Source of the DNA: Pseudomonadota bacterium
GTDB lineage: Bacteria; Pseudomonadota; Alphaproteobacteria; UBA2136; JAPKEQ01
Direction: 5' to 3'
NCBI GenBank assembly: GCA_036141575.1
Contig: JAYZXF010000002.1
Coordinates: 9,536-73,535 of the forward strand
Length of the DNA stretch: 64,000 nucleotides
Shown here one piece after another: positions 2,075-54,693 of the stretch. The first letter of the stretch is position 1. Each line of letters opens with the position of its first letter. The translations under genes and the position numbers were made by a program. The notes beneath the pieces were generated by a model. That model did not search any database. It was not told the DNA's origin and saw only the letters and a program-made list of their open reading frames with translations.

Positions 2075-3736
2075 ATGAACAAACTTCTTAAAAGCACATT
2101 GATCGCCGGCGGTGTGATGGGCGCTTTCTTCGCTTCTAACGCGAACGCGCAATCATTCAACGTCCTGATCGATGAAATTGAGCTTGTTAGCGATGCTGAC
2201 AACTACATCTCATCTGCTGCTACTGTGTACAAGCCATCTGTTGGTGTAGGTGCAGCAACAACTACAACTGTTGACTTCTTTGCTGATGACAACGAGCGTT
2301 ACAACCTAGTTAAGCCTTCAACTGGCGTGTACGAGTCTATGATCGTTCACTTCACAACTGCTGAAGTATCTGGTTCTACTGCTGGTATCACTAACGTTGA
2401 CCTAACAGACGTTCCAGGAAACGGTGGTTTCCGTGGCGCTCTATTCCACCAGTACGGTGGTCGTGACGTAATGATCTTTGGTTCAATTGGTGACGGTCTT
2501 GGTGCTTCTATTCAAGACGTAATTGCCGGTGCTGTTGCTATTCCAATGCAGCCTGTTGTTGTGACTGCTAGCGGTTTCTCAGTTCCTGAGTTCAACTGGA
2601 ACTTCCCAGCTGCAAGCGTAGAAGAAATTGGTACTGACGTGAACCTTGTAAGTTCTCTAAAGCCATTCACTCTAGCAAACAACGTTGATAGCTCTGACGT
2701 TATCGACTTTGAATTCACTGTTAAAGCAAACGCTTTTGCTGCTGCAACTGACTTCAACGCTGGTACTTCTAACATTGCTGTAGGTCTATTTGCTAAGTCT
2801 ATGACTGATGCTCGTCCTATGTTCCACCAAACGTTCCGCCCATCTGCTGCTGACGTAGCGGACGGTTCTGCGAGCGAAACAATCACATTCTACGATGTTC
2901 CTGCTGTTGACACTGTACCAGTTGCTTGGTTCGATGCTGACAACGATAAAGAACTTGACCAGGGTGAGTACGTTTCTATGGCTGACTTCACAGTAGAAAA
3001 CTCAGATGTACTTGGTACTGCTATCGATGCAGCTCAAACAGCTGACTCTACTGTAGCGTTTGACTACAACAGTGCAATCAGTGCTGTAACTCAAACTGCT
3101 GTACCATTTGGTTACCGTACGTTTGACCTTGTGATCCCAATGGGTGACCTTGATGGCGCGACTGCTGCTCTAGCTCCTGCTGATGCAACATTCAACGCTT
3201 CTGGTATCATGGTTACTGATGCTGGTGCTGGTCCTCTAGCTACAAGCACTTGGGCTTCTACTTCAGGTACAGCTCTTCTACAAGTTGCTTACGACATCTT
3301 TGATGATGGTACAACTCAAGTAGCTCGTAACTTTGACCTAGCGATTGGTTACGGTGAAGAAACTGGTAACAGTGATGCAACAATTGATTCTGGTGAAGCA
3401 ATGTTTGTCGTAATGGCTAACGCTGCTGCTGACAACGTTTCAGGTGTATCATTTGTTTCTAGTACTGAGCTTCTAACGATCTCTGGTATCCCATTCACAG
3501 CTATTACAGCTGTATCTGCGGATAACACTGGTGAGTACTCAGTAACTGTAAACTCAACTGATGACACAACTCCTACAACGACTGCTACTGGTCTTACAAT
3601 TGAAGAAGTTGGTTCTCTAACAGTTGGTGCTGAACTTGAAGCTCCTGTTGCTGGTTCGATCACTGTTGTCGTTGGTGATGGTGATGCATCAAACACTGAT
3701 GGTATCATCGACATCATTGACCTAGGTACTCTATAA
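2075..3736 (+). CDS. Large acidic secreted protein (553 aa) with an N-terminal Sec signal peptide. It is Ala/Thr/Ser/Asp/Gly/Val-rich and Cys-free. Possibly a major surface or S-layer-like protein, or an exoprotein.
   Basis: Long ORF with an AGGGAAG RBS. The signal peptide is MNKLLKSTLIAGGVMGAFFASNANA|QS. Codon usage is strongly biased (gct/tct/act/ggt/cgt/cta), like the ribosomal and atp genes in this window. A strong rho-independent terminator follows directly. Confidence 0.8.
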   Translation: MNKLLKSTLIAGGVMGAFFASNANAQSFNVLIDEIELVSDADNYISSAATVYKPSVGVGAATTTTVDFFADDNERYNLVKPSTGVYESMIVHFTTAEVSGSTAGITNVDLTDVPGNGGFRGALFHQYGGRDVMIFGSIGDGLGASIQDVIAGAVAIPMQPVVVTASGFSVPEFNWNFPAASVEEIGTDVNLVSSLKPFTLANNVDSSDVIDFEFTVKANAFAAATDFNAGTSNIAVGLFAKSMTDARPMFHQTFRPSAADVADGSASETITFYDVPAVDTVPVAWFDADNDKELDQGEYVSMADFTVENSDVLGTAIDAAQTADSTVAFDYNSAISAVTQTAVPFGYRTFDLVIPMGDLDGATAALAPADATFNASGIMVTDAGAGPLATSTWASTSGTALLQVAYDIFDDGTTQVARNFDLAIGYGEETGNSDATIDSGEAMFVVMANAAADNVSGVSFVSSTELLTISGIPFTAITAVSADNTGEYSVTVNSTDDTTPTTTATGLTIEEVGSLTVGAELEAPVAGSITVVVGDGDASNTDGIIDIIDLGTL

Positions 3737-3826: not shown

Positions 3827-4825
3827 ATGAAATTTGAAACTGATTCTTTATTCTGGTCTGCTCAGCAAAAGCTTGAGTCTTTTGCTCAAACACTCCTGTG
3901 CTACATGCATTCAAAACGTACTTCTCTTCTCTCTCTTGTTGTGTTGAGTGTTTTGGTTGCTGTTATGTTGGTCTCTTCTGTTTTTGCACTGATGCCATAC
4001 TTGCCAAGCCTGATGCTCACAAGTAATCCAGAAACGACAGCTTATGCATTTGAAGCAGGTGATTTGAAAAAGGCGCAGGCAGTTTCACTTGAGAGCTATG
4101 ACTCTCTTGAGCGTGCTGCATGGTTTGGTGCATCAACACAGATGGCATTAAACGAGCTGCCAGTAGAAACAGTAAAAGCAGAAACAGCTTTGAATTTGAC
4201 TCTTAAGGGAACAATTTCTGGATCTTCACCTTACGCTATTATTGTGGATAACATGACGGGTGAAAGTAAACTCATTCAAATGGGTGAGTCTGTGCTTAAG
4301 GGGGTTGTGTTAAAAGATATTCAGCGCCGCATGGTTGTACTGAGTAACAAAGGTAAGTTGGAAAAGTTAAGCCTTCCTGGAAACGATTTCTCGCAATTTG
4401 TTAAGAATGAAGGCAGTGCTAAGAAGCCTGCTACTGTGAAACCTTCTCAGAAGCGCTCTGGGCCTTCTAACGTCTATGTTTCAAACAGGGAAGTTGTAAA
4501 GCGTCAAGAAGTTCGTGTTTCAAAAGCTGATATTAAAGATGCGTTCTCCAACCTTGGTCGCCTTGCAACACAAGCACGTTTCTTGCCTCGTATTGAAGGT
4601 GAAGAGATTGTTGGCTTCCGTGTCACAAAGCTTAAGCATGACAGCTTCCTTGCGAAACTCACAGTTCAAGAGAATGACATTCTTGTGAAGGTGGATGATG
4701 TGCCTGTGTCAGACCGTGATCGTCTCTTCCCGATGCTGATGGAACTGAAGAATGCTGATGAGGCTGAAATTGTTCTGAATCGTCGTGGGACGCAAATTGG
4801 TCTTCTTATTAAAGTTGACTCATAG
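3827..4825 (+). CDS. gspC: Type II secretion system protein C (GspC)-like: N-terminal TM segment, HR (PilP-like) domain, and C-terminal PDZ domain.
   Basis: A TM helix (LLSLVVLSVLVAVMLVSSVFAL) is followed by an HR-domain-like segment (LNLTLKGTISGSSPYAIIVDNMTGESKLIQMGESVLKGVVLKDIQRRMVVLSNKGKLEKLSLPG). The C-terminus is PDZ-like (IVGFRVTKLKHDSFLAKLTVQENDILVKVDDVPVSD). No other gsp genes are adjacent. Confidence 0.6.
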   Translation: MKFETDSLFWSAQQKLESFAQTLLCYMHSKRTSLLSLVVLSVLVAVMLVSSVFALMPYLPSLMLTSNPETTAYAFEAGDLKKAQAVSLESYDSLERAAWFGASTQMALNELPVETVKAETALNLTLKGTISGSSPYAIIVDNMTGESKLIQMGESVLKGVVLKDIQRRMVVLSNKGKLEKLSLPGNDFSQFVKNEGSAKKPATVKPSQKRSGPSNVYVSNREVVKRQEVRVSKADIKDAFSNLGRLATQARFLPRIEGEEIVGFRVTKLKHDSFLAKLTVQENDILVKVDDVPVSDRDRLFPMLMELKNADEAEIVLNRRGTQIGLLIKVDS

Positions 4826-4857: not shown

Positions 4858-4945
4858 GGAGAAGTGGCCGAGTGGCTTAAGGCGCACGCCTGGAACGCGT
4901 GTTGAGGGCAACCTCTCGCAGGTTCGAATCCTGTCTTCTCCGCCA
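4858..4945 (+). tRNA. tRNA-Ser (anticodon GGA), class II tRNA with a long variable arm and an encoded CCA.
   Basis: The 88-nt cloverleaf has acceptor GGAGAAG/CTTCTCC, an anticodon stem CACGC/GCGTG with loop CUGGAAC, a long variable arm, and T-arm GGTTCGAATCC. It ends with GCCA. Confidence 0.9.
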
Positions 4946-4952
4946 TATCAAA

Positions 4953-4976
4953 ACGCCCCCTTGTGGGGCTTTTTAT
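4953..4976 (+). terminator. Rho-independent terminator after tRNA-Ser.
   Basis: The sequence aacGCCCCcttgtGGGGCttttta. Confidence 0.55.
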
Positions 4977-5083
4977 ATGGGGTTAAGAGAAACAGAGATA
5001 AGAACCTGCGAAGCAGGTTTGAAAGCGAGGAACGAGCGCCCGTAAGCGAGCGGAGCGATGCGCAAAGGAGCAAAGCGACTGGC

Positions 5084-5094
5084 AATCCTGTCTT
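5084..5094 (+). repeat. Direct repeat of the tRNA-Ser 3' end (aatcctgtctt, 11/11 nt; also at 4927-4937). Possible att-site remnant.
   Basis: An exact 11-mer match to the T-arm/acceptor 3' portion of the adjacent tRNA sits about 150 bp downstream. It is followed by a low-GC gene. Confidence 0.3.
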
Positions 5095-5158
5095 TTCTTT
5101 ATTTGTACGAACTTATGATTGATGCTACTTTGTGTTGCATTAGTTTTAGAGGTTATAA

Positions 5159-5752
5159 ATGAAAAAAATAATATTCTTAGGCTTGAGTGCTCTTCTGCTT
5201 ATTTCTTGCAGTAAATCAGTTGAAAAACCAGTAAAGGCTGTGGCGACAGCGCCTATGAAGGTGGTGGGAGCTGCTATGGTTGCTCCTCCTTTGATAGGGC
5301 TTTATGCATATGGTTGTTTAGATGCTACTATTCCTCGTGTTTCTTTTGAAAAGGACCGCATTACTGATGTGACAGTTAATGAGCATGTAACGAAAAAAAA
5401 GTATAGCCACACTGTAGTGTGTGAGGCGTATCATGATGGCACCTGTGGGGGGACAGGAGGAGAATGGAAGTGGAGAGAGAAAATGCCTGTTTCTCCTCAG
5501 TACGGTAAGGCTGCTGATGGTCGTGATATTAAAATTAGTTTTGGTGGGTGTGGCGGGTATCCAAATATTACCTTTATAAATGAGCAGGGGGATGTTGATA
5601 GTGATGCTCATAAATATTGTGAAAAATTAGATGTAAACCCTCTGAGTGTTATGAAAGAGCCAGGAAGTATGTGTTACAGCGGACCAGACAAAACCGAACT
5701 TCTTATGAAGTTTACATATAAAAGAAAGCGCTTAAAGAATGAAAGCCATTAA
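5159..5752 (+). CDS. Cys-rich lipoprotein of unknown function (197 aa).
   Basis: The lipoprotein signal is MKKIIFLGLSALLLISC. About 10 Cys residues occur in CGG/GTCGG contexts. It is visibly more AT-rich than neighbouring genes (many aaa/tta/att codons). Its 3' end overlaps the convergent rsmB stop. Confidence 0.7.
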   Translation: MKKIIFLGLSALLLISCSKSVEKPVKAVATAPMKVVGAAMVAPPLIGLYAYGCLDATIPRVSFEKDRITDVTVNEHVTKKKYSHTVVCEAYHDGTCGGTGGEWKWREKMPVSPQYGKAADGRDIKISFGGCGGYPNITFINEQGDVDSDAHKYCEKLDVNPLSVMKEPGSMCYSGPDKTELLMKFTYKRKRLKNESH

Positions 5753-7053
5753 TTAGCTATCTTTTCAGCCCTCTTTAAGACCGCCCCAAAGAATCCGTCA
5801 CAACCATGTTCTGCTGGAGTCAGGCGCAGATATGGTTGGGCGTATGGTAGGTTTACCAAGTTCTGATCTTTGAGAATATCCTGTGCTTGAACAAGTTCAA
5901 AGTCTGGATGCTTCTCTAGGAATTTTTGCACCGTGTGTGTGTTCTCTTGTGGCAGGAGAGAGCATGTAGCGTACACCACGTGGCCTGTATTATTTACAAG
6001 GCGAGAGGCGCTTTCTAGAATACTCAGCTGAATGCGATGGTACTCAGCAATATCTGCTTTAGTCAGGCGCCATTTGGCATCTGGGTTACGGCGCCATGTG
6101 CCAGTACCGCTACATGGGGCATCAATCAGAACCACATCAGCTTTGCCTTTGTGTTTCTTCACCCATTTATCATTCTCATCGCTCAGAAGCTGACGACGAA
6201 CGTTATGAACGCCATTACGCTTACAACGCTTAGAGAGTTCTTCCATGCGACGCTCAACAATATCACAGGCGTAAATGGTACCTTTGTTTTCCATGAGTGC
6301 GGCAAGGGCGAGCGTTTTACCACCTGCACCTGCGCAGAAATCAACAACAGTTTGGCCCGGCTTTGGCGCGCAGAGTTGCGCAAGAATTTGTGAGCCTTCA
6401 TCTTGCACTTCAAACTGACCTTCACGGTAGGCATCGAGTGTGTGGAATGGGAAGCGCTGATGAACACGCACGCCATCTGGCGAGACTTGCATGTCTTCTG
6501 CTTCAAGGCCTTTGGTTTTAAGAGCCTTTTTCACGCGGTCTTTATCAGACTTGAGTGTGTTGACGCGGATGTCCACAGGCGCTTCTGTGAGCATGCCTTT
6601 CATTTGACGTGGGAGTTGGTCCCCAAAAACACCAAGAAGGTGTTCATATGTCGCGTCAGGCACTTCTAGCATTACTTCTTCAGGAGCATTTTCAAACCAG
6701 TTCTCTGGCGTATCGTCTAAAACGTTTTCTTCTGTTGGAGACAGTGGTTCTGGTACGTGGCGCTCACCTGTGCAAGCCTCTTTAAGTTCAAGGTATGTGC
6801 ACACGTCGCTGAGGATAGCGGCAGCAAAGGTGCGCTTTCTTGCGCCTACGTCTCCCGCTTTCCAAATGTATTCAGCACGGCGCCAGTGGCGGAATGTTGT
6901 GTAAACAAGGCTGCTGATAAACTTTTTATCGCTTCCACCAATGTAACGACGGTCACGGAAGTAAGCTGCCATGAGGCGGTCAGCAGGGCGTGGGTTATCC
7001 ATCCAAATTTGGATGATATCAATTGCGGCTTGGAGGCGGGCAGCGTCTTGCAT
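5749..7053 (-). CDS. rsmB: 16S rRNA (cytosine-C5)-methyltransferase, RsmB/Sun (NOL1/NOP2) family.
   Basis: SAM-MTase motifs (VVDFCAGAGGKT, DAPCSGTG) with an N-terminal NusB-like region. Confidence 0.85.
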   Translation of the reverse strand: MQDAARLQAAIDIIQIWMDNPRPADRLMAAYFRDRRYIGGSDKKFISSLVYTTFRHWRRAEYIWKAGDVGARKRTFAAAILSDVCTYLELKEACTGERHVPEPLSPTEENVLDDTPENWFENAPEEVMLEVPDATYEHLLGVFGDQLPRQMKGMLTEAPVDIRVNTLKSDKDRVKKALKTKGLEAEDMQVSPDGVRVHQRFPFHTLDAYREGQFEVQDEGSQILAQLCAPKPGQTVVDFCAGAGGKTLALAALMENKGTIYACDIVERRMEELSKRCKRNGVHNVRRQLLSDENDKWVKKHKGKADVVLIDAPCSGTGTWRRNPDAKWRLTKADIAEYHRIQLSILESASRLVNNTGHVVYATCSLLPQENTHTVQKFLEKHPDFELVQAQDILKDQNLVNLPYAQPYLRLTPAEHGCDGFFGAVLKRAEKIAN

Positions 7054-7058
7054 AGGGG

Positions 7059-7988
7059 TTATTTCACCATTGTTTCGATAAATTCAATAATAGGAGTGGC
7101 CGTATCAATGCCTGTTGTTTTCTCAATACCGTTTAGGCCTGGAGAAGAGTTCACCTCAAGCACAACAGGGCCGTTTTTAGAGCGCAGCATATCTACACCA
7201 GCGACATTAAGGCCGAGTGATTTTGTGGCTTGTATAGCTGTTTGAATCTCTTCTTTAGAGAGTTCAACATTGCCAGCGCTACCACCACGGTGGAGATTTG
7301 AACGGAAGTCACCATCTTTGGCTTTACGTTTCATGCCTGCAATGACTTTATCACCCACAACAAAGCAGCGAATGTCTTCACAGTTGGCTTCTTTCACAAA
7401 CTCTTGCACCATTAGGTTTACCTTAAGGTCCATGAAGGCTTCAATCATGCTGATGGCTGTTTTACGGTCATCCATGAGGAAGACACCGTTACCATGTGTC
7501 CCTTCTAGAAGTTTGACAACAAACTGCTCTTGCTGCATTTGCTCCATAATGTGTGGTAGGTCATCTGGGTTATGGGCAAACCATGTTTCAGGCATGCCAA
7601 TACCATCACGAGAGAGGAGTTGTAGTGCACGTAGTTTGTCGCGTGAACGAGAAATAGCAATGGAGCGGTTTACACTGTGTACGCCCATCATTTCAAATTG
7701 GCGAAGTACGGCTGTTCCGTAAAATGTAATTGAGGCGCCAATGCGCGGAATAATCGCATCAAATCCTTCAAGAGATTCGCCTTTATACACAACAGATGGG
7801 TTGTTGCTTGAAATGTTCATGCTACAGCTGAGCGTGTTGATGATATGCATATCATGTCCACGAGCGCGGCCTGCATCAACAAGGCGGTTTGTTGAGTAAA
7901 TTTTAGGGGCAACAGAAAGCACGCCAATTTTAAGCGGTTTTTTAGCTTTTGTTGGGTTGCTTTTAATAAAATCAAACATGTGTGTCAT
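7059..7988 (-). CDS. rimK: RimK-family alpha-L-glutamate ligase (ATP-grasp).
   Basis: ATP-grasp fold sequence with an N-terminal pre-ATP-grasp region and RimK-like length (~300 aa). Confidence 0.85.
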
Positions 7989-8499
7989 CCAGTTGGTAAC
8001 GCTTAGATTGAAGCGTTATGCAGTGTTCAAGTTGTGGCGTGCCCATAAGGTGGGCAAATGTTGGGCTCACAAGACAAGCTTTACCAAGTGAGCTGCGGCC
8101 AAAGAGCATGCGGTAAGTCATATCTTTACGCGATGTGAGGGTGATATCAATTGGCCAACGGTACGGGCCAACATGCACCCAAGTCAGAATCACGTAGCGT
8201 GTGTTTGTTTTACCGTTGGAGCTGGTGATTTCACGTTTATCGAGAATTTTTGCTTCGCACGTGAGTTCTTCTTTGCGGTTTTTGCGGTTAGGGTGCGTAA
8301 TAAAGCGAACCCACTGCTCACCATCTTTTTCAAATGGGGTAATCTTTTCAGCATGCAGAGAGGACGTCTTTGCGCCTGTATCAATTTTGGCTTCGAGAGC
8401 CTCAATGCCGAGTTTAGGGAGTGCGACTGTTTCCACCCATCCCACCATTACTTGTGGGAATCTTGGCGGCTTGAGCGCTTGTGTCTTTTTCGTAGTCAT
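7972..8499 (-). CDS. RimK-associated retropepsin-like aspartyl protease (ATP-dependent zinc protease family, DUF785).
   Basis: About 175 aa, immediately upstream of and overlapping rimK. The family is routinely paired with RimK. The start is taken at an internal Met (MTTKK...). Confidence 0.7.
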
Positions 8500-8580
8500 G
8501 GTGCGGATTATGGAGCCACTACAAACAAATTGCAACTCTTAGCCAAAAAATGCGTATACATAGTGTTTTGAAACAATATG

Positions 8581-10539
8581 TTACAACGCAATATTTTTTG
8601 CCTTAAGGGCAGAAATAAGCGGTTTAAGTTGCTCTTGAATCGGTTCCCAACTCTTTACGCTAGACGTATAAAGCGGCTTATTTACTTGCTGCATGCTGGC
8701 TGTACGAACGGTACGTTTTGCCTTATGGAAGTTCATAAAGTCTTCAGACCATTCAAGGCCTGTATGTTCAACCAGCTCTTTAATGTGCGTTTCAGGAGTG
8801 CTGACAATATCTTCATATCTTACTGTGTAAACAGAACTGTTTTGCATGTACTGCTGCATCATGTCATTAAAGGTGGCGTATGTTTCCGCAAGAGTTTCTT
8901 GGTTGTAGCTAAACCACTGACCAGTGTTGAACATTTGTTTGTAGCAAGACACACAGATAGAAACAGGGTCACGATCTGTATAGATGATCTTTGCTTCAGG
9001 GAAAGCGGCAGTAATAAGTGGTAGCCATAGCGCGTTAAATGGCATTTTATCTGTAAAGAACTTGGCTTTCATGTCAGGGAATAGCGTTTTTACAGAGCTG
9101 ACGTAGAGTTCTCGTACAGCATTAACGGCGTCTTGTGAAGTCAGTGTCTGAAGTGTATCTTTATCAAGCTTTCCGCCACAAACTTGTAGGGCAATGGTGC
9201 GCATGAGGCTAAGTTCACCACCATCAAATACATCAGGGCTTGTTGTGAGGATTTGTTCAACAAGCGTACTGCCACTCCTTGGCATACCAACAATAAAGAT
9301 CGGTGTCCATGAAAGGTCTACATCATTATCTGCTTTTGGAAGAGGTTCTTTAAATGTGTCCATAAGTAGATTCATAAGATCTACATCTTCATGAGCCTTT
9401 TCTGAGATACTGTTATGGATAATATCAGCACCTTTTGAGAAATGCTCCCACGCTTCAACAGGTTCTTTACGTGCATCGAGTGTGCGGGCAATGGCATAGT
9501 GCCATTTTGATTTTTCAACATCGCTTTTGCACTCGTTAAGGCCTGTTTCCATAGCATTAAACATATCTTCATCAATACGTTTTGCATCAATATGCGTAGC
9601 GCTGAGGAAGCCCCATGCAAAGTCTGGCGTACTCATAGCCGCGTCTCTGGCAAAGTTGAAGGCTTTTTCTGTGTCACCTTCTGCCGAAGCCATGTTGGCC
9701 TTAAGGGTGAGCATCTCAGCGTTCTTTGGATCTTTCGTAAGAATCTGATCGGCGCACTTTGTGGCTTCTTCCATGTTATTCATACCAAAGTGAGCTTTTG
9801 CAAGGTATGTAACAGCTTCTTCTGCATCAGGGCGTAGCGCCAAAACTTTATTAAAGTGTTCTACTGCTTTAGCAAAGGCCGTTGCCGCAAGGTAAGCCCG
9901 ACCAAGTTCCATATGAACTGAAGGGTTGTTGGGTTGAATGCTTTCAGCTGTTTGTAAATGGTGCAGCGCAACAGGAAAGTTTTCTTCTGCAAGGCCAATA
10001 AGGCCAAGGTGAAGGTGTGAACCAATATGTTTTGGGGCGTGTCCCAGCACTTTGTTAAAGTATACTTTTGTTTCTGCGTAGCGGCCCATACGGAAAGAGA
10101 CAACACCTGCAAGCTCTAAACTTTTGAGGCGGTTTTTATCGTGTGCGAGAACGGTTTTAAAATGTCCAAGAGCTTGGAGCATATTGCCAAGTCTCATCGC
10201 ACACTGGCCAGCGCCTTCTTGTGCAAGGAGGTTTTGTGGTGACTTTTGTGTGGTGGCTTCAAACAAAGCGTACGCTGTTTTTAGGTCACCCATTTGTGCC
10301 TTAAGATTGGCGTAGTTTGTTTGGAAAAGTTCATTTTCAGGCTCTAGCTCAATAGCTCTTTGTAGGTGTATGTCACCAGATGCATCGCCAGCTTGGAGCT
10401 TTGCCATGCCTAAAAAGTGTGTGGCAGCAGCATCGTTTTTATTGGCTTTAACAAGAGATTCATAAGCCGCAATTGCGCCCTGTAAATCGCCACTTTGATG
10501 AAGAGATTGTGCGTCCTGTAAATTCATAAGGCCCATCAT
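8581..10539 (-). CDS. TPR-repeat protein with a C-terminal sulfotransferase domain.
   Basis: Multiple TPR-like repeats in the N-terminal two thirds. The C-terminal domain has a PAPS 5'-phosphosulfate-binding-like motif (IFIVGMPRSGSTLV) and a downstream RDP motif. The start is chosen at internal MMGLMN to avoid overlap with the divergent transporter. Confidence 0.75.
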   Translation of the reverse strand: MMGLMNLQDAQSLHQSGDLQGAIAAYESLVKANKNDAAATHFLGMAKLQAGDASGDIHLQRAIELEPENELFQTNYANLKAQMGDLKTAYALFEATTQKSPQNLLAQEGAGQCAMRLGNMLQALGHFKTVLAHDKNRLKSLELAGVVSFRMGRYAETKVYFNKVLGHAPKHIGSHLHLGLIGLAEENFPVALHHLQTAESIQPNNPSVHMELGRAYLAATAFAKAVEHFNKVLALRPDAEEAVTYLAKAHFGMNNMEEATKCADQILTKDPKNAEMLTLKANMASAEGDTEKAFNFARDAAMSTPDFAWGFLSATHIDAKRIDEDMFNAMETGLNECKSDVEKSKWHYAIARTLDARKEPVEAWEHFSKGADIIHNSISEKAHEDVDLMNLLMDTFKEPLPKADNDVDLSWTPIFIVGMPRSGSTLVEQILTTSPDVFDGGELSLMRTIALQVCGGKLDKDTLQTLTSQDAVNAVRELYVSSVKTLFPDMKAKFFTDKMPFNALWLPLITAAFPEAKIIYTDRDPVSICVSCYKQMFNTGQWFSYNQETLAETYATFNDMMQQYMQNSSVYTVRYEDIVSTPETHIKELVEHTGLEWSEDFMNFHKAKRTVRTASMQQVNKPLYTSSVKSWEPIQEQLKPLISALKAKNIAL

Positions 10540-10633
10540 AGTGGGGCAGCTCTCAAAATTAAAGAATAATTTGTGAATCCTGTGGCCTGCGGTTAAAGTA
10601 TGAAGGCTAAAAAGATTAAGAATAGGGAATCCC

Positions 10634-11968
10634 ATGTGGTTTAAAAAATCAGAAGACCAGACATCTCCAAAAGCATTCAGGCGCCAAATTACAGAGCATA
10701 TTCAAGAAAAGCTCTGGCTAAAGATCCTTATCGCCCTGTTTTTAGGTGGGGTATTTGGGTATATCCTTAGCCCTGATGTGGCTGTCATGAAAGCTGAACA
10801 TGCAACACAGATTTCAACGTGGGTCGCTTTCCCAGGGTACTTGTTCCTGCGTGTTCTTCAAATGGTGGTGATCCCTCTTGTTATGGCCTCTCTTATTCTT
10901 GGGATTGCAGGTGGTGAAAGTTTAAGTCTGATTAAAAAACTCAGCTGGCGTGTGATTCTTTACTTTATGTTTACAACAACCATTGCCGTGAGCATTGGTT
11001 TAACGCTTGGTAACTTGTTTGAGCCGGGCCAGATGATGGATATTGAAAAAGCGAGTACGTTGACACAAGGCTACACGCCTCCACCAACCAATCAAGCTCT
11101 TACAGATGGCAGTAATATTCCAAAGCGTATTGTGGGTCTTATTCCTAAAAACCCATTTGCTTCTATTGCCAGCGGAGACATGCTGAGCATTGTGATCTTC
11201 TCGATCTTTATTGGGTTTGCTCTGGCTTCTATGAGCCTTGTACGTTCAAAACCTATTTTAGAGCTGGCGCAGAGTACTCAAGACTTGTGTATGGTGCTGG
11301 TAAGTTGGATGATTAAACTTGCGCCGTACGCGGTGTTTGGTTTGATTATGGATGCGATGGTGAAACTCGGCGTAAGCTCTATTCTTGCAATGGGGCTTTA
11401 TGTGGTGACAGTCTTTACAGGGCTTGTGTTGATGGTGGTGTTTTATGGCTTAATTGTAACGCTTCTGGGCATGAACCCTCTTGAGTACTTTAAGAAGATT
11501 CGTGAAGCGCAGCTGATTGCGTTTTCAACGTCCTCTTCAGCAGCAACTATGCCAGTCACACTTCGTGTGGCAGATGAGAAGCTGGGTGTGAAGCCATCCG
11601 TATCTGGCTTTACAATTCCGCTGGGTACAACCATTAACATGGATGGTACTGCGCTTTACCAAACCATTGCGACGATCTTCCTTGCGCAAGTCTTCCAGAT
11701 TGATCTTTCAATGTGGGATATGGGTATGGTTCTGACTCTCGCCATTGCGGCCTCTGTGGGTACGCCGGGTACACCTGGTGTTGGTATTATTGTGTTGGCT
11801 ACAATTCTTGTGAGTGTGGGTGTACCACCTGAAGGGATTGCGCTAATTTTGGGTGTGGACCGTATTTTAGATATGTGTCGTACAACGATTAACGTAACAG
11901 GTGACTTAACAGCGACTGTGGTCATGAATCGTCTGCTTAAGCATGAGGAATCAGAAGATGAAAGCTAA
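10634..11968 (+). CDS. Dicarboxylate/amino acid:cation symporter (DAACS; GltP/DctA/SstT family).
   Basis: A polytopic membrane protein with characteristic DAACS signature segments (e.g. the hydrophobic run LVVTVFTGLVLMVVFYGLIV). Confidence 0.8.
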   Translation: MWFKKSEDQTSPKAFRRQITEHIQEKLWLKILIALFLGGVFGYILSPDVAVMKAEHATQISTWVAFPGYLFLRVLQMVVIPLVMASLILGIAGGESLSLIKKLSWRVILYFMFTTTIAVSIGLTLGNLFEPGQMMDIEKASTLTQGYTPPPTNQALTDGSNIPKRIVGLIPKNPFASIASGDMLSIVIFSIFIGFALASMSLVRSKPILELAQSTQDLCMVLVSWMIKLAPYAVFGLIMDAMVKLGVSSILAMGLYVVTVFTGLVLMVVFYGLIVTLLGMNPLEYFKKIREAQLIAFSTSSSAATMPVTLRVADEKLGVKPSVSGFTIPLGTTINMDGTALYQTIATIFLAQVFQIDLSMWDMGMVLTLAIAASVGTPGTPGVGIIVLATILVSVGVPPEGIALILGVDRILDMCRTTINVTGDLTATVVMNRLLKHEESEDES

Positions 11969-12965
11969 ACTTCTTTTAGGATTAAGCCTGCTTGCAGCAG
12001 TCACATCACATGCGCAACCTGCTTTAGAACTGCCTATAAACTGTGTTCTAGGGCGTACATGTTTTATTGTGGATTTATATGACCATGGTCGTAACTTGGA
12101 TGAAATGGGGCATCCGTTTCTGATGGATTACACAGGCAACAAGCGTACGACAGATGATTACTACGGAACGCGTTTCCAAATCTATAATTCAACCCTTGCA
12201 GATAGAGGGGCAGATATCACGGCTTCAGCTGATGGTGTGGTTGTCTCTGTTCGTGACCAACTGCCGAGCGATCCTTATGCGATTACAGTGTTAGGGTCTC
12301 GCTTGCGTGAGTCTGTTGGGAACTCTGTTGTTGTAGACCATGGTAATGGTTGGGAAACGCAATACAGCGGCCTCTTAAAAAACAGTGTGCCTGTGAAAAG
12401 AGGGGACAAAGTTAAAGCGGGTGATGTGCTTGGTAAGGTGCAACGCTTTGCGCGCCAAAGCTACCCAACAATGCACTTTGTTGTACGTCATAAGAGTATT
12501 CCAATTGATCCGTTTGTAGGCGTGTATGACGGTATGTTCACAACAGACTTAAAGCGTAAGCCGCTTTGGAAAGAAAACTTTGAGCAAATTGCTTTTACAC
12601 GTGATGTTGGTTTAATTGCGACAGGTTTTTCTAAAGAAGTGCCAGACATTGAGCGTGTAAAGCGTTCTATGCTGGATAGTAGCTACTTTAGAGGGGATGA
12701 CGATCAGATTCTGTTTTGGAGTTATGCCTTTGGCCTTAAGAAGGGCGATAAAGTGACCATTGCTATCTATAACCCTAAAGGGGCCATGGTTTCTCGTCAT
12801 GAGGATATCCTTCCTAAGGATCAGGAACGCTACTTTGCTTATGTAGGTCGTAAGGCTGAAACTTACGGCCTTCCACAAGGTGTGTATCGTGGTAGTATTA
12901 CGGTGAAGCGAGAGGGAGAAACTTTGTTGAGTGATGTCGATACCATTCGCGTGAATGCATTCTAA
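11958..12965 (+). CDS. Secreted M23-family metallopeptidase.
   Basis: The signal peptide is MKAKLLLGLSLLAAVTSHA. An M23 core is present (VVVDHGNGWETQYSGL...GDKVKAGDVLGKV...HFVVRH). Confidence 0.75.
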   Translation: MKAKLLLGLSLLAAVTSHAQPALELPINCVLGRTCFIVDLYDHGRNLDEMGHPFLMDYTGNKRTTDDYYGTRFQIYNSTLADRGADITASADGVVVSVRDQLPSDPYAITVLGSRLRESVGNSVVVDHGNGWETQYSGLLKNSVPVKRGDKVKAGDVLGKVQRFARQSYPTMHFVVRHKSIPIDPFVGVYDGMFTTDLKRKPLWKENFEQIAFTRDVGLIATGFSKEVPDIERVKRSMLDSSYFRGDDDQILFWSYAFGLKKGDKVTIAIYNPKGAMVSRHEDILPKDQERYFAYVGRKAETYGLPQGVYRGSITVKREGETLLSDVDTIRVNAF

Positions 12966-12971
12966 ACACAA

Positions 12972-12996
12972 ACAAGGCCCCAGAATGGGGCCTTGT
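12972..12996. terminator. Bidirectional rho-independent terminator between the convergent M23 and HExxH genes.
   Basis: The sequence caaGGCCCCagaatGGGGCCttgttctt. Confidence 0.5.
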
Positions 12997-13008
12997 TCTT
13001 ATTTTCGA

Positions 13009-13814
13009 TTAGTCGCCATATACCTCGTCAAGGTGGGCTGCATAGGCTTCGGCTTGAGCGCGGAACGGGATGCCATGAAGCATTTTACTTTTAAGCCAGC
13101 TGATGTGATCACTGAGAGCTGACTCGCGGTTGCGCATTGAGCCATATATCAGCAAATACATTTTGAACTCAACCTCACGGTAGCTTTCCTGCCAAATACT
13201 GGACCATTCGTAATTGCTGAAGCCGTATTGTGCAATACGGCGCACTTCAGGGTCGGCACTGTTTTTGTGCGTTTCCTTCATGCACTCCAGTCGAGCGCGC
13301 ATGATGTAGTCTTTCAGTGCTTTGGGATCTTCAGCAAAGAGAGCATAGTTATCCTCATTGAGGAAGCGATCCGCCCAAATGGGCTGCTCAAAGGTCAGGG
13401 GGCGAAGGTCAGGCATCCAGAAATACACCATTACATCGCTGATGGTCCTAGCAAGGGCTTCTTCCTTTAGCATTTTTTGATGCCAAGCCTCAAAAGAGAG
13501 GTTGATATCATATTCCGCGTAAGCCATGTGGCAGATTTCATGTAGCAGAGCCATATCTGCAACATAGGGGTTTTTGAATTTGATGTCGCTGAGATCAGCT
13601 AATGCGCTAAACCATGGCGTATTGTGGAAGCGTTCAATGCTTGGGTCCGTATAGCGATAGAATACGCGAGGGAGTTCTGCAAATTTTTCCAGAATGCCAT
13701 GTAAGGGTGAGCTTTTCTGGCCTGCAAAAATCCGAAACATGTCTGTTTGCCAGAGGGTGTTGGTGAAGGTGATGATGTCCTGTTTGCCGCTAATGGCGTG
13801 GATATCTTTCATAT
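13009..13814 (-). CDS. Hypothetical protein with an HExxH zinc-metallopeptidase-like motif.
   Basis: Start at MKDIHAIS, with an AGGAG RBS 7 nt upstream. It contains the motif LLHEICHMAYAEYD. No recognisable family was found by eye. Confidence 0.6.
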
Positions 13815-42139: not shown

Positions 42140-42245
42140 GTAAGGTGCAGCTCACCAAGGACGGACGCAGCGCACTGTAAACCCCGCCAGGCCCGAAAGG
42201 GAGCAACGGTAGCAAAAGCGGGTGGGTCGTCCTTGGCCTTTTTCT
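42140..42245 (+). ncRNA. ffs: Signal recognition particle RNA (4.5S RNA, ffs), small bacterial type.
   Basis: A long hairpin (CCAAGGACG...CGUCCUUGG) encloses the conserved domain IV-like core CCAGGCCCGAAAGGGAGCAACGG with a GNRA loop. It ends in a T-run. Confidence 0.7.
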
Positions 42246-42541
42246 TTAGGGTGCTTTTTGCACTTTGCCTCACTTAAGCACGTTTTGTGCTCTGCGTTCG
42301 TTAAAGGCACAAAAACCTCTCCTAAAATTTTTTAAATTAAGCCTGTGCGAGTGGGAGCAAGTGCGACCCAAAAGGCTCAGGCCTTTTGTTGCTGGTCCGC
42401 AAGGTAATGCTACGCTCGAGCGAGAGCGAGGCGGGCAAGCTAAATATAAGTAAAGCAGGTTGTGGCAGTTAGGGCTTTCGTGTGCAAGGCACTGTCTCTA
42501 AGCACAAAAAAAAGCCCCCTTTCGGAGGCTTTGGGGATCGT

Positions 42542-53437: not shown

Positions 53438-54693
53438 AGTTCCAGTGCTTTCACCATATCAATGGCACGTTCAAGTTGGTAGTCGTAAGGGCGTTCGTCT
53501 TTTTTGTCTTTCTTATCTTTAGAAGATAGTTTTTCACCAGCTTCTTCCAGCATCTTCTCAAGCTCAATGTGGCCTTTAAGAGAGGCTTCAGATGGGCGGT
53601 CAGATACATCAACGTCTTCAACTTTTAGAGGTTTCACTTCGATGTCTGGCTCAATACCTTTGGCTTGGATAGAACGGCCAGATGGTGTGTAGTAAAGTGC
53701 CGTTGTGAGGCGCATACCAGAGTTACCTGGGAGCTGCATAATTGTTTGTACAGACCCTTTACCAAAAGACTTTGTTCCAAGAACAAGTGCACGGTTATGG
53801 TCTTGTAGGGCGCCTGCAACAATCTCTGAAGCAGATGCGCTACCGCCGTTGATCAGAACAACAATTGGAGCGCCTTCCATAACATCGCCAGAGCGTGCGT
53901 TATAACGCTGGTTTTGGTTTTCAATGCGGCCACGTGTTGAAACAATTTCACCTTGCTCTAGGAACGCATCAGAGGCAGCAACAGCTTGTGACAGAAGTCC
54001 ACCAGGGTTGTTACGTAGGTCAAGAACAAGGCCTTGTAGTGGCTCGCCTTCGTTCTCTTTTTTCAGGTCATTTAGGTGTTTTTTAATTTGCTTACCAACA
54101 TGCTCGTTAAACGTTGTGATACGTAGGTAGCCAACACCATCACGTTCTAGGCGAGACTTCACAGGAATAATTTTGATGATGTCACGTGTGATTGTGATGT
54201 CCATCGCTTTACGCTCAGACTCACGGAAAACTTTAAGCTTAATGTCGCTACCGACTTTACCGCGCATTTGGTCAACAGCTTCTGAAAGAGTTTGGCCTTG
54301 TACGTCTTTACCATCAATTTGGATGATGAGGTCACCAGCTTCAACGCCAGCTTCATAGGCAGGTGTGCCTTCAATTGGCGAAACCACTTTAACAACACCA
54401 CGGTCCATTGTGACCTCAATACCAAGACCACCAAACTCACCTTTAGTTTGCTCAGTCATAGATTTCATCGCGTCTTCTGGGAGGTAAGAAGAGTGTGGAT
54501 CGAGGGCTGTTAGCATGCCTTCAATGGCATCTTCTACAAGAGTTGTGTCTGAGATTTCATCCACGTAGCTTGTTTTAATTCGGTCAATGACATGCGTCAT
54601 AATATCGAGCTTTTCATAGAGCTCTTTGTTATCAACTGCATGTGCAGAAAGTGTAAGCAGGGATGCAAAACCAATGGTGGCAAGTAAACGCAT
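53419..54693 (-). CDS. ctpA: Carboxyl-terminal processing protease (S41 family).
   Basis: A signal peptide, a PDZ domain and an S41 catalytic region (GGSASASEIVAGALQD; SFGKGSVQ). Confidence 0.85.
   Translation of the reverse strand: MRLLATIGFASLLTLSAHAVDNKELYEKLDIMTHVIDRIKTSYVDEISDTTLVEDAIEGMLTALDPHSSYLPEDAMKSMTEQTKGEFGGLGIEVTMDRGVVKVVSPIEGTPAYEAGVEAGDLIIQIDGKDVQGQTLSEAVDQMRGKVGSDIKLKVFRESERKAMDITITRDIIKIIPVKSRLERDGVGYLRITTFNEHVGKQIKKHLNDLKKENEGEPLQGLVLDLRNNPGGLLSQAVAASDAFLEQGEIVSTRGRIENQNQRYNARSGDVMEGAPIVVLINGGSASASEIVAGALQDHNRALVLGTKSFGKGSVQTIMQLPGNSGMRLTTALYYTPSGRSIQAKGIEPDIEVKPLKVEDVDVSDRPSEASLKGHIELEKMLEEAGEKLSSKDKKDKKDERPYDYQLERAIDMVKALELWSKKS

Follow-up and report, generated by a model that had tools for sequence, protein, structure and literature searches.

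Short repeats of a tRNA 3′ end found a little way downstream of the tRNA are usually read as the boundaries of genomic islands. One such repeat lies in a 64-kb stretch of a Pseudomonadota genome (contig JAYZXF010000002.1, positions 9,536–73,535; hereinafter the window, in whose coordinates positions are given unless a relative is named). Here an 11-mer, AATCCTGTCTT, from the 3′ part of a tRNA-Ser(GGA) gene recurs upstream of a gene coding for a 197-aa lipoprotein, which in turn converges on rsmB. The question raised by this locus is whether the repeat is the trace of an insertion at the tRNA, as proposed in an initial annotation that took the two copies for an attL/attR pair and the lipoprotein gene for the cargo of a degraded islet, or has a different source. 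We lean, with moderate confidence, toward a different source: the second copy would belong, as an integral component, to an RtT-like tRNA-trailer element (4977–5106), and the lipoprotein gene would be a separate unit.

The repeat and its tRNA

The tRNA-Ser(GGA) gene, recovered by both ARAGORN and Rfam, is the sole tRNA of the window. The 11-mer has exactly two exact copies in the 64 kb, at 4927–4937 and 5084–5094, both on the + strand, as initially annotated. The first of these runs from the end of the T-loop through the 3′ strand of the T-stem into the acceptor 3′ strand, while the second starts 138 nucleotides (nt) past the tRNA end, giving a copy-to-copy spacing of 157 nt. The match can be extended to 13 of 14 positions (AATCCTGTCTTcTC versus AATCCTGTCTTtTC), with the identity ending at 4937/4940; the final 8 nt of the tRNA (CTCCGCCA) have no counterpart downstream (2/8 identical).

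The repeat had been judged improbable by chance. Exact direct repeats of at least 11 nt within 300 nt occur as nine separate cases in the window, and the probability that any of them touches the ~25 nt at the 3′ end of the sole tRNA is ~0.005. The bare 11-mer is, by itself, weak evidence. No right-hand att copy is present near the rsmB stop (5740–5790), where there is only a coding GAATCC, and the open reading frames (ORFs) between gspC and rsmB include no integrase, in agreement with the initial annotation. We also tried the spacer between the two copies as a pseudo-tRNA and rejected it, the gapped alignment of the whole tRNA to the spacer being merely marginal (p 0.006–0.016).

Architecture and conservation of the trailer element

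For comparison, we recruited relatives through searches with RsmB and the GspC-like protein. One set, L043–L045, represents a sister species (rsmB 92.6% identical in nucleotides and 100% in protein over 225 aa). A distant relative, L013, is a metagenome-assembled contig labelled Polaribacter sp., whose RsmB groups with that of Arenicella. The features of the tRNA and its downstream region are as follows:

4858–4945 (+): tRNA-Ser(GGA) gene (ARAGORN; Rfam tRNA model, 57.4 bits; identical in the relative L042)
4926–4945 (+): attB identity block GAATCCTGTCTTCTCCGCCA, target of genomic islands in relatives and unoccupied here (comparisons with L006, L043 and L042)
4955–4974 (+): intrinsic (bidirectional) terminator hairpin and T-run directly after the tRNA (terminator scan and RNA fold; kept in L043, similar in L013)
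4977–5106 (+): RtT-like tRNA-trailer element, whole unit, ~125 nt (Rfam RtT match and reciprocal covariance models)
4987–5019 (+): inverted (reverse-complement) copy of tRNA positions 4910–4940 (local alignment; 100% kept in L043)
5002–5020 (+): T-arm-like hairpin AACCTGC-GAA-GCAGGTT (fold; aligns with GAACCTTCG...AAGGTTCGA of the Escherichia coli RtT)
5024–5083 (+): purine-rich, GCGA-rich core of 60 nt (88% identical to L043)
5084–5097 (+): direct copy of tRNA 4927–4940 (13/14), forming the 3′ side of the outer stem (counterpart in the RtT alignment: the tRNA-Tyr-derived end AAUCCuuCcC)
5095–5106 (+): T-rich 12-mer TTCTTTATTTGT, the last perfectly kept block before the divergence from L043 (alignment with L043; it also abuts the attR of L006)

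The element starts 32 nt past the tRNA end at 4945, on the same + strand, and contains more tRNA-derived sequence than the 11-mer. The inverted copy at 4987–5019 has a local alignment score of 30, which was attained by none of 2000 dinucleotide shuffles. Within it and beyond, positions 5013–5023 (GCAGGTTTGAA), comprising the 3′ arm of the hairpin and the following GAA, are a 10/11 direct copy of tRNA 4918–4928 (attained by 10 of 2000 shuffles) and form the hairpin with a part of the inverted copy. The direct copy of the tRNA is accordingly split in the T-loop by the 60-nt core (5013–5023 ... 5084–5097). Both the fold of the window sequence and that of the alignment give an outer stem of 13 bp, in which 4986–4999 pairs with 5085–5098 around the hairpin at 5002–5020. 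Because the 11-mer pairs within this outer stem, it is one of several tRNA-derived segments that together make an interrupted palindrome. The hairpin, queried as a 28-mer in an exact-pattern scan of metagenome_contigs, gave no match.

The trailer is strongly conserved in the sister species. Across 4946–5106, 151 of the 161 positions are identical to L043, with perfect blocks of 38 nt (4986–5023) and 23 nt (5084–5106), and the interval between the two 11-mer copies is 93–100% identical. The element itself is 94–100% conserved, as against neutral differences of 20–32% (20% at the four-fold sites of rsmB; proportion of synonymous differences, pS, 0.32; Fisher p 9e-4). In L013, a terminator similar to that at 4955–4974 again follows the tRNA-Ser(GGA). 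The initial annotation read the 11-mer as a simple duplication; instead, it appears to be part of a conserved, structured element. A small ORF in the spacer was considered and set aside: all four substitutions in a 22-aa candidate are non-synonymous and the region has an indel, while a minus-strand ORF is broken by an indel in L043.

Probable relationship to RtT RNA

The E. coli tyrT-distal 178-bp repeat (rttR) offers the closest precedent for this arrangement: each of its units, which yields an RtT RNA, closes with the final 19 nt of tRNA-Tyr. The RtT family, known from Enterobacterales and Pasteurellales, is little studied, and its function is unsettled. A permissive Rfam scan of 4940–5165 returned RtT RNA (RF00391) as the top match, at 4976–5102 and over the full length of the model (1–130), with 18.2 bits; the alignment sets AAUCCUGUCUU on the tRNA-Tyr-derived end. 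For comparison, the four RtT units of the E. coli K-12 tyrT region score 133–137 bits. Each of the latter opens with a spacer, which is followed in order by GGGGAAGGAT (reverse-complementary to the 3′ strand of tRNA-Tyr), the T-arm-like hairpin GAGAAGCTTCGACCAAGGTTCGA, a purine-rich core of ~67 nt, and AATCCTTCCCCCACCACCA, identical to the 19 nt at the end of tRNA-Tyr. The same parts, ordered as in the E. coli unit, make up the window element, with tRNA-Ser sequence replacing that of tRNA-Tyr.

Two covariance models support this likeness reciprocally. The first, R1, was built from the four E. coli units only and run on both strands of the 64 kb with filters off. Its best match is 4977–5101 (+), at full length (17.1 bits, E 0.016; next match E 0.42), which places it directly downstream of the window's sole tRNA and in the same orientation. 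The second, R2, was built from the window and L043 only and run on 95 kb of other (control) loci; its best match there is an E. coli RtT unit (L050, 1171–1282; 18.3 bits, E 0.015), and in this alignment both stems are kept through changes on both sides. When R1 was applied to the other loci, the best match lay 35 nt downstream of the L013 tRNA-Ser(GGA), again near rsmB. Moreover, among the tRNAs of the compared loci, an inverted copy of the tRNA's own end is found downstream only for this tRNA-Ser and two E. coli tRNA-Tyr genes (scores of 29–30, as compared to 10–14 for the other tRNAs).

The shared features comprise the position just after a tRNA gene, in its orientation; an end that copies, over a shorter length in the window, the T-loop, T-stem and acceptor 3′ strand of that tRNA and pairs with an upstream reverse complement; the T-arm-like hairpin (GAACCNNN...NNNGGTTYGA); a GCGA-rich purine core of ~60–70 nt; and a comparable unit length (157 nt in the window versus 178 nt in E. 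coli). The differences lie in the cognate tRNA, which is tRNA-Ser(GGA) with Ser-type arms in the window and tRNA-Tyr in E. coli; in the Tpr-like ORF, which is not conserved; and in the host, an uncultured marine proteobacterium with relatives labelled Magnetococcales, Alphaproteobacteria or Arenicella-like. A change of tRNA has a parallel in Pasteurellaceae, where RtT-family RNAs beside Asn and Lys tRNA genes have been seen on Northern blots (PMC4986893). From this comparison, we posit that the window element has the architecture of RtT and that the two are probably related.

Several observations weigh against that relationship. The 18.2 bits of the Rfam match stand against a gathering score of 45, with an E-value of 0.26 across all families, and the Rfam listings of L043 (E ≤ 10) and L013 (E ≤ 1) contain no RtT match. 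The E-values of R1 and R2 are rough to a factor of ~5; R1 gives L043 just 6.3 bits, R2 has no match to the L013 element, and the cores of the window element and of the E. coli units do not resemble each other significantly when compared alone (p 0.13). The window has a single unit as opposed to the 3–4 tandem units of E. coli (four in K-12 tyrT), and its copy of the tRNA end measures 11–14 nt and lacks the CCA-proximal 8 nt, whereas that of E. coli measures 19 nt and includes CCA. A strong intrinsic terminator (4955–4974) separates the tRNA from the element, and this makes their co-transcription uncertain. Within the lineage only two near-identical sequences are at hand, which show no covariation, and their high conservation could also reflect recent recombination or a function in the lipoprotein promoter. 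In view of the low scores, which fall below the gathering threshold, and these other caveats, the element is not filed as an RtT member by the Rfam criterion.

In the scenario that we favor, the element would have been made from the 3′ region of the adjacent tRNA itself, as an inverted copy plus a split direct copy, which would pair as the 13-bp outer stem enclosing the T-arm-like hairpin. By analogy with RtT, it may be transcribed by read-through from the tRNA and freed during tRNA processing. The element and the preceding terminator constitute the native chromosomal flank of the tRNA, and the hot spot at 4926–4945 is unoccupied.

A further observation concerns L013 (9010–9226, − strand), in which a second copy of the terminator, together with the initial ~45 nt of the RtT-like unit, appears ~170 nt further on, making ~1.3 units. 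This partial tandem repeat resembles the 178-bp repeats of tyrT.

The tRNA 3′ end as an integration site in relatives

A second known system comparable to the locus is that of the attL/attR direct repeats of tRNA-integrating genomic islands (P4-type tyrosine integrases; Islander database, PMC4383910), and the relatives of the window supply instances of such repeats and of an integrase at this tRNA. In L042, with a GspC 84% identical to that of the window and an identical tRNA, homology to the window ends exactly at 4945 and a P4-type tyrosine integrase (Arm-DNA-bind_3, Phage_int_M and Phage_integrase domains) starts 165 nt past the tRNA. In L006, whose RsmB shows 86% identity, no tRNA gene lies closer than 6 kb to rsmB, but the exact 20-mer GAATCCTGTCTTCTCCGCCA, i.e., the tRNA end through CCA, is found at 9381–9362 (− strand) in the tRNA's orientation, between a type I restriction hsdR gene on one side and a small ORF, a GGDEF gene and rsmB on the other. 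This 20-mer reads as a classic displaced attR. L043–L045 have a decayed attR copy, GAACCCTGTCTTCGCCA (at 45–61 in L043), reading GAACCCTGTCTT--CGCCA, with unrelated DNA before it; the sequence after it is the one found downstream of the intact tRNA of the window. These displaced fragments (20 nt in L006, 17 nt in L043) start at the equivalent of G4926 and run to CCA.

Accordingly, the part of the initial annotation that saw an integrase target in the tRNA-Ser 3′ end is borne out, and judging from these comparisons this end is a live integration hot spot in the lineage. Since the flank after the L043 attR is the same as that after the window tRNA, the sequence from 4946 onward is native flank and the attB of the window is unoccupied. 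The 146 nt between the two 11-mer copies are therefore native trailer, and not the island DNA that they had been taken for. The 11-mer likewise departs from the genuine attRs of L006 and L043 by stopping 8 nt short of the tRNA end. With no match over those last 8 nt and a native interval, the att-scar reading fails for the 11-mer. Pattern scans with the 20-nt att core in viral_contigs and, as exact patterns, with a 40-mer of the tRNA in metagenome_contigs gave no match.

The L006 locus (9362–13284; relative labelled Magnetococcales) has further points of interest. Its hsdR ends ~100 nt from the perfect 20-nt copy of the tRNA-Ser 3′ end, and this adjacency implies a defense-carrying island at tRNA-Ser. 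Contig L041, from the same sample as L006, breaks just past gspC, at the expected position of the tRNA. The 12-mer TTCTTTATTTGT occurs once in each of the two loci, directly 3′ of the 11-mer in the window (5095–5106) and directly 5′ of the attR in L006 (9393–9382, − strand). A shared local-alignment match of this size arises by chance in ~3% of shuffles, but in both loci the 12-mer adjoins a tRNA-derived core.

Weighing the alternative explanations

The attR comparison leaves room for an older event, in which the 11–14-mer would be a truncated attR or the end of an integrase-less miniature element left by an ancient integration in the T-loop; in a variant of this explanation, RtT-like units as a class could be fossil mini-islands, each ending in an att core. 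Like an att repeat, the window repeat is a direct repeat of the 3′ part of a tRNA, and its identity starts at A4927, one base from G4926, the T-loop crossover position at which the true attRs start. The tRNA is a proven hot spot, with a site really used by an integrase in L042. The direct copy is split exactly in the T-loop, the E. coli units are tandem and each end in the 19-nt tRNA end, and TTCTTTATTTGT abuts both the window copy and the L006 attR. However, the last 8 nt, indispensable to a displaced tRNA end, are missing from the window copy, which breaks off sharply instead of decaying gradually like the displaced fragment of L043. The interval holds the tRNA's own terminator and the flank that also follows the L043 attR, with no island gene in it; integrase recombination does not explain the inverted copy that accompanies the repeat; and the conservation is well over the neutral expectation. 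We therefore regard an integration scar as unlikely, and take the integrase-related hints to bear on the origin of the element rather than on a recent insertion here.

It is very unlikely, in our estimate, that the block 5084–5106 simply serves the lipoprotein promoter, as its −35/upstream regulatory region or as an operator, and matches the tRNA incidentally. The block is conserved at 23/23 positions and ends 8 nt upstream of an aligned −10 (TATGAT in the window, TATAAT in L043), and the nine comparable 11-mer repeats in the window illustrate what occurs by chance. Yet such an account would leave unexplained the inverted copy (p < 5e-4), the adjacent 10/11 direct copy and the reciprocal RtT model matches. 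Moreover, the block contains no recognizable −35 hexamer, and in L013 the element is followed by an MFS gene on the other strand, that is, there is no such downstream gene. Islet cargo, the proposal of the initial annotation for the lipoprotein gene, strikes us as the least plausible of these accounts, despite the mildly atypical GC content and codon use of the gene, its absence from L005 and L006 (which have a GGDEF gene there) and from L013, the lack of an ortholog with >50% identity among 5.8 billion clusters, and synonymous sites near saturation relative to the sister allele. The gene lies downstream of the second copy and hence outside the presumed attL–attR interval, and a second boundary repeat is absent at 5740–5790; in L043, a homologous allele fills precisely this position and likewise overlaps the convergent rsmB; distant family members reside in ordinary chromosomal contexts; and the window gene has no integrase or other mobility gene in its vicinity.

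The RtT-like trailer thus remains our preferred explanation. A broader extension of it, which we offer as a quite unlikely conjecture, is that RtT-like units constitute a widespread, unrecognized class of tRNA trailers with arms copied from, and co-evolving with, the cognate tRNA, arising at the T-loop by integrase action or by template switching at a TTCGAA palindrome. The arms would come from Tyr in E. coli, Ser in the window, and Asn and Lys in Pasteurellaceae. Such units could also serve as secondary recombination sites, in which case the start of a swapped lipoprotein cassette at the 3′ end of the element and the 12-mer beside the L006 attR would both be explained.

The lipoprotein gene and its divergent allele

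Downstream of the element, the locus continues with the following features:

5114–5152 (+): putative promoter/leader, with −10 TATGAT at 5114–5119 (TATAAT in L043), a kept 20-nt hairpin block at 5123–5142 and a ribosome-binding site AGAGG at 5148–5152 (from the L043 alignment and fold)
5159–5752 (+): 197-aa lipoprotein gene (ORF with lipobox; small uncharacterized family)
5749–7053 (−): rsmB, 16S rRNA m5C methyltransferase, convergent with the lipoprotein gene (Pfam Methyltr_RsmB-F, E 9e-49)
5107–5769 (no strand): block of apparently old divergence from L043, spanning the promoter, the lipoprotein gene and the last rsmB codons (72/67/46/47% identity, as compared to 93–100% on both sides)

The protein begins with a signal peptide whose lipobox reads MKKIIFLGLSALLLIS-C17 (LLLIS-C17), with the cysteine invariant in all seven family members, and is predicted from its sequence to be a lipoprotein of the signal peptidase II substrate type, as first annotated. 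The stop codon of the gene overlaps that of rsmB by 4 nt (TTAA). The protein has seven cysteines (17, 53, 88, 96, 131, 154 and 172), six of them in the mature form, instead of the approximately ten initially counted. Its AT-richness was correctly noted but is mild: GC is 0.407 versus 0.453 for the window and GC at third positions (GC3) is 0.318, making the gene the second lowest in GC, third lowest in GC3 and third lowest in synonymous-codon fit among 55 long ORFs, with z-scores of −1.9, −1.6 and −1.7, respectively.

The initial annotation recognized no family, and indeed neither Pfam nor NCBIfam has a match. A word-index protein search recovered only the protein itself and a profile search only three proteins, and no ortholog with >50% identity was found among 5.8 billion clusters. 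Nevertheless, an exhaustive HMMER search identified a small, unnamed family. Its sole full-length relative among 1.8 billion representative proteins is P0005 (38% identity), and the members P0005, P0007–P0010 and P0012 all combine a lipobox signal peptide with a length of 160–200 aa. The family-wide core is C-[LI]-D-x3-P ... C-E-x-[YF]-[YH]-x3-C-x3-G-x2-W-x-W, and the invariant residues are C17, C53, D55, P59, C88, E89, C96, G100, W103, W105 and G121, of which C53, D55, P59, C88, E89, C96, G100, W103 and W105 are shared by weaker relatives of 160–190 aa that also have lipoboxes. The window protein differs from the other members in a longer linker after the lipobox and three extra cysteines, and is 19–37% identical to them. 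For no member is there a functional annotation, a Pfam or NCBIfam model, or a relative of solved structure. Three large proteins matched by HMMER (P0006, P0011 and P0013) were dismissed as spurious, being TPR, CBM or repeat proteins. The distant members occur in unrelated, ordinary chromosomal contexts with no shared neighbor and no mobile genes; the window contains no paralogue, and the L005, L006 and L013 loci do not encode the family. An AlphaFold2 model is β-rich (mean predicted local distance difference test score, pLDDT, 69) and has no convincing match in the PDB. The protein is probably a disulfide-stabilized envelope lipoprotein under diversifying pressure.

P0005 fills the same slot in the sister species L043, preceded by the same element and followed by the same convergent overlap with rsmB. 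The identity between the two loci changes along this region: it is 100% at 5084–5106, 72% in the promoter/leader (with the 20-nt hairpin block perfect and the −10 aligned), 67% in lipoprotein codons 1–66, 46% in the remainder of the gene, 47% in the last rsmB codons, and 93% from 5770 on. At the protein level, the 38% identity of the lipoproteins compares with 100% for the adjoining RsmB segment. The difference extends to silent sites. Third-base differences at conserved four-fold codons affect 19 of 34 (56%) in the lipoprotein gene versus 22 of 110 (20%) in rsmB (p 1.4e-4), corresponding to Jukes–Cantor distances of ~1.0 and ~0.23, and from this excess the lipoprotein alleles are estimated to be several times older than the genomic background. 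Thus, the suspicion that the gene has a history different from that of its flanks holds in part, even though the islet does not. Rapid protein evolution alone is a poorer account of these figures than an allele replaced through recombination or a polymorphism of long standing. Since the divergence between the two alleles far exceeds that of the flanking genome, we propose that a lipoprotein gene with its own promoter, coding for a probably disulfide-bonded protein, may have been exchanged or kept as an old polymorphism.

In other relatives the slot is taken by a GGDEF gene (L005 and L006) or by an MFS transporter gene (L013). The synteny of the window with L005 and L006 ends ~25 nt inside the 3′ end of rsmB, which makes this end a recurrent rearrangement boundary. 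The C-terminal tail of RsmB differs in every relative (L005, L006 and L043) and is ~36 aa longer in L006. Upstream of rsmB, at 7059–8535 (−), lie rimK (ATP-grasp) and an adjacent ORF of 187 aa; the rimK–rsmB pair is kept in L005 and L006.

Implications and other features of the window

If our reading of this locus is right, a repeat of a tRNA 3′ end that could plausibly be mistaken for an island boundary is here part of a conserved trailer, and such elements would be a source of false attR calls for island-finding software. Should the link to RtT also be true, the family would extend to a different tRNA in distant, uncultured marine bacteria, and its tRNA-derived arms would track the cognate tRNA, thereby constraining ideas on the origin and processing of these RNAs. 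The locus is also a compact natural case of a vacant integration hot spot lying beside a conserved non-coding element and an allele of a lipoprotein gene apparently much older than its background.

Elsewhere in the window, positions 1500–2100 form a 600-nt stretch with a GC of 0.33 and an 11-nt direct repeat (1770 and 2034). It lies upstream of the gene for a secreted-looking protein of 553 aa without a Pfam match (2075–3736), which is followed by the GspC/T2SS-C-like gene (3827–4825). Rfam places a Rickettsia sRNA47 (Rp_sR47) at 53719–54018 (+), with 69.7 bits against a gathering score of 60; this match may overlap a conserved coding region and not be a real small RNA. The signal recognition particle (SRP) RNA is located at 42154–42246.

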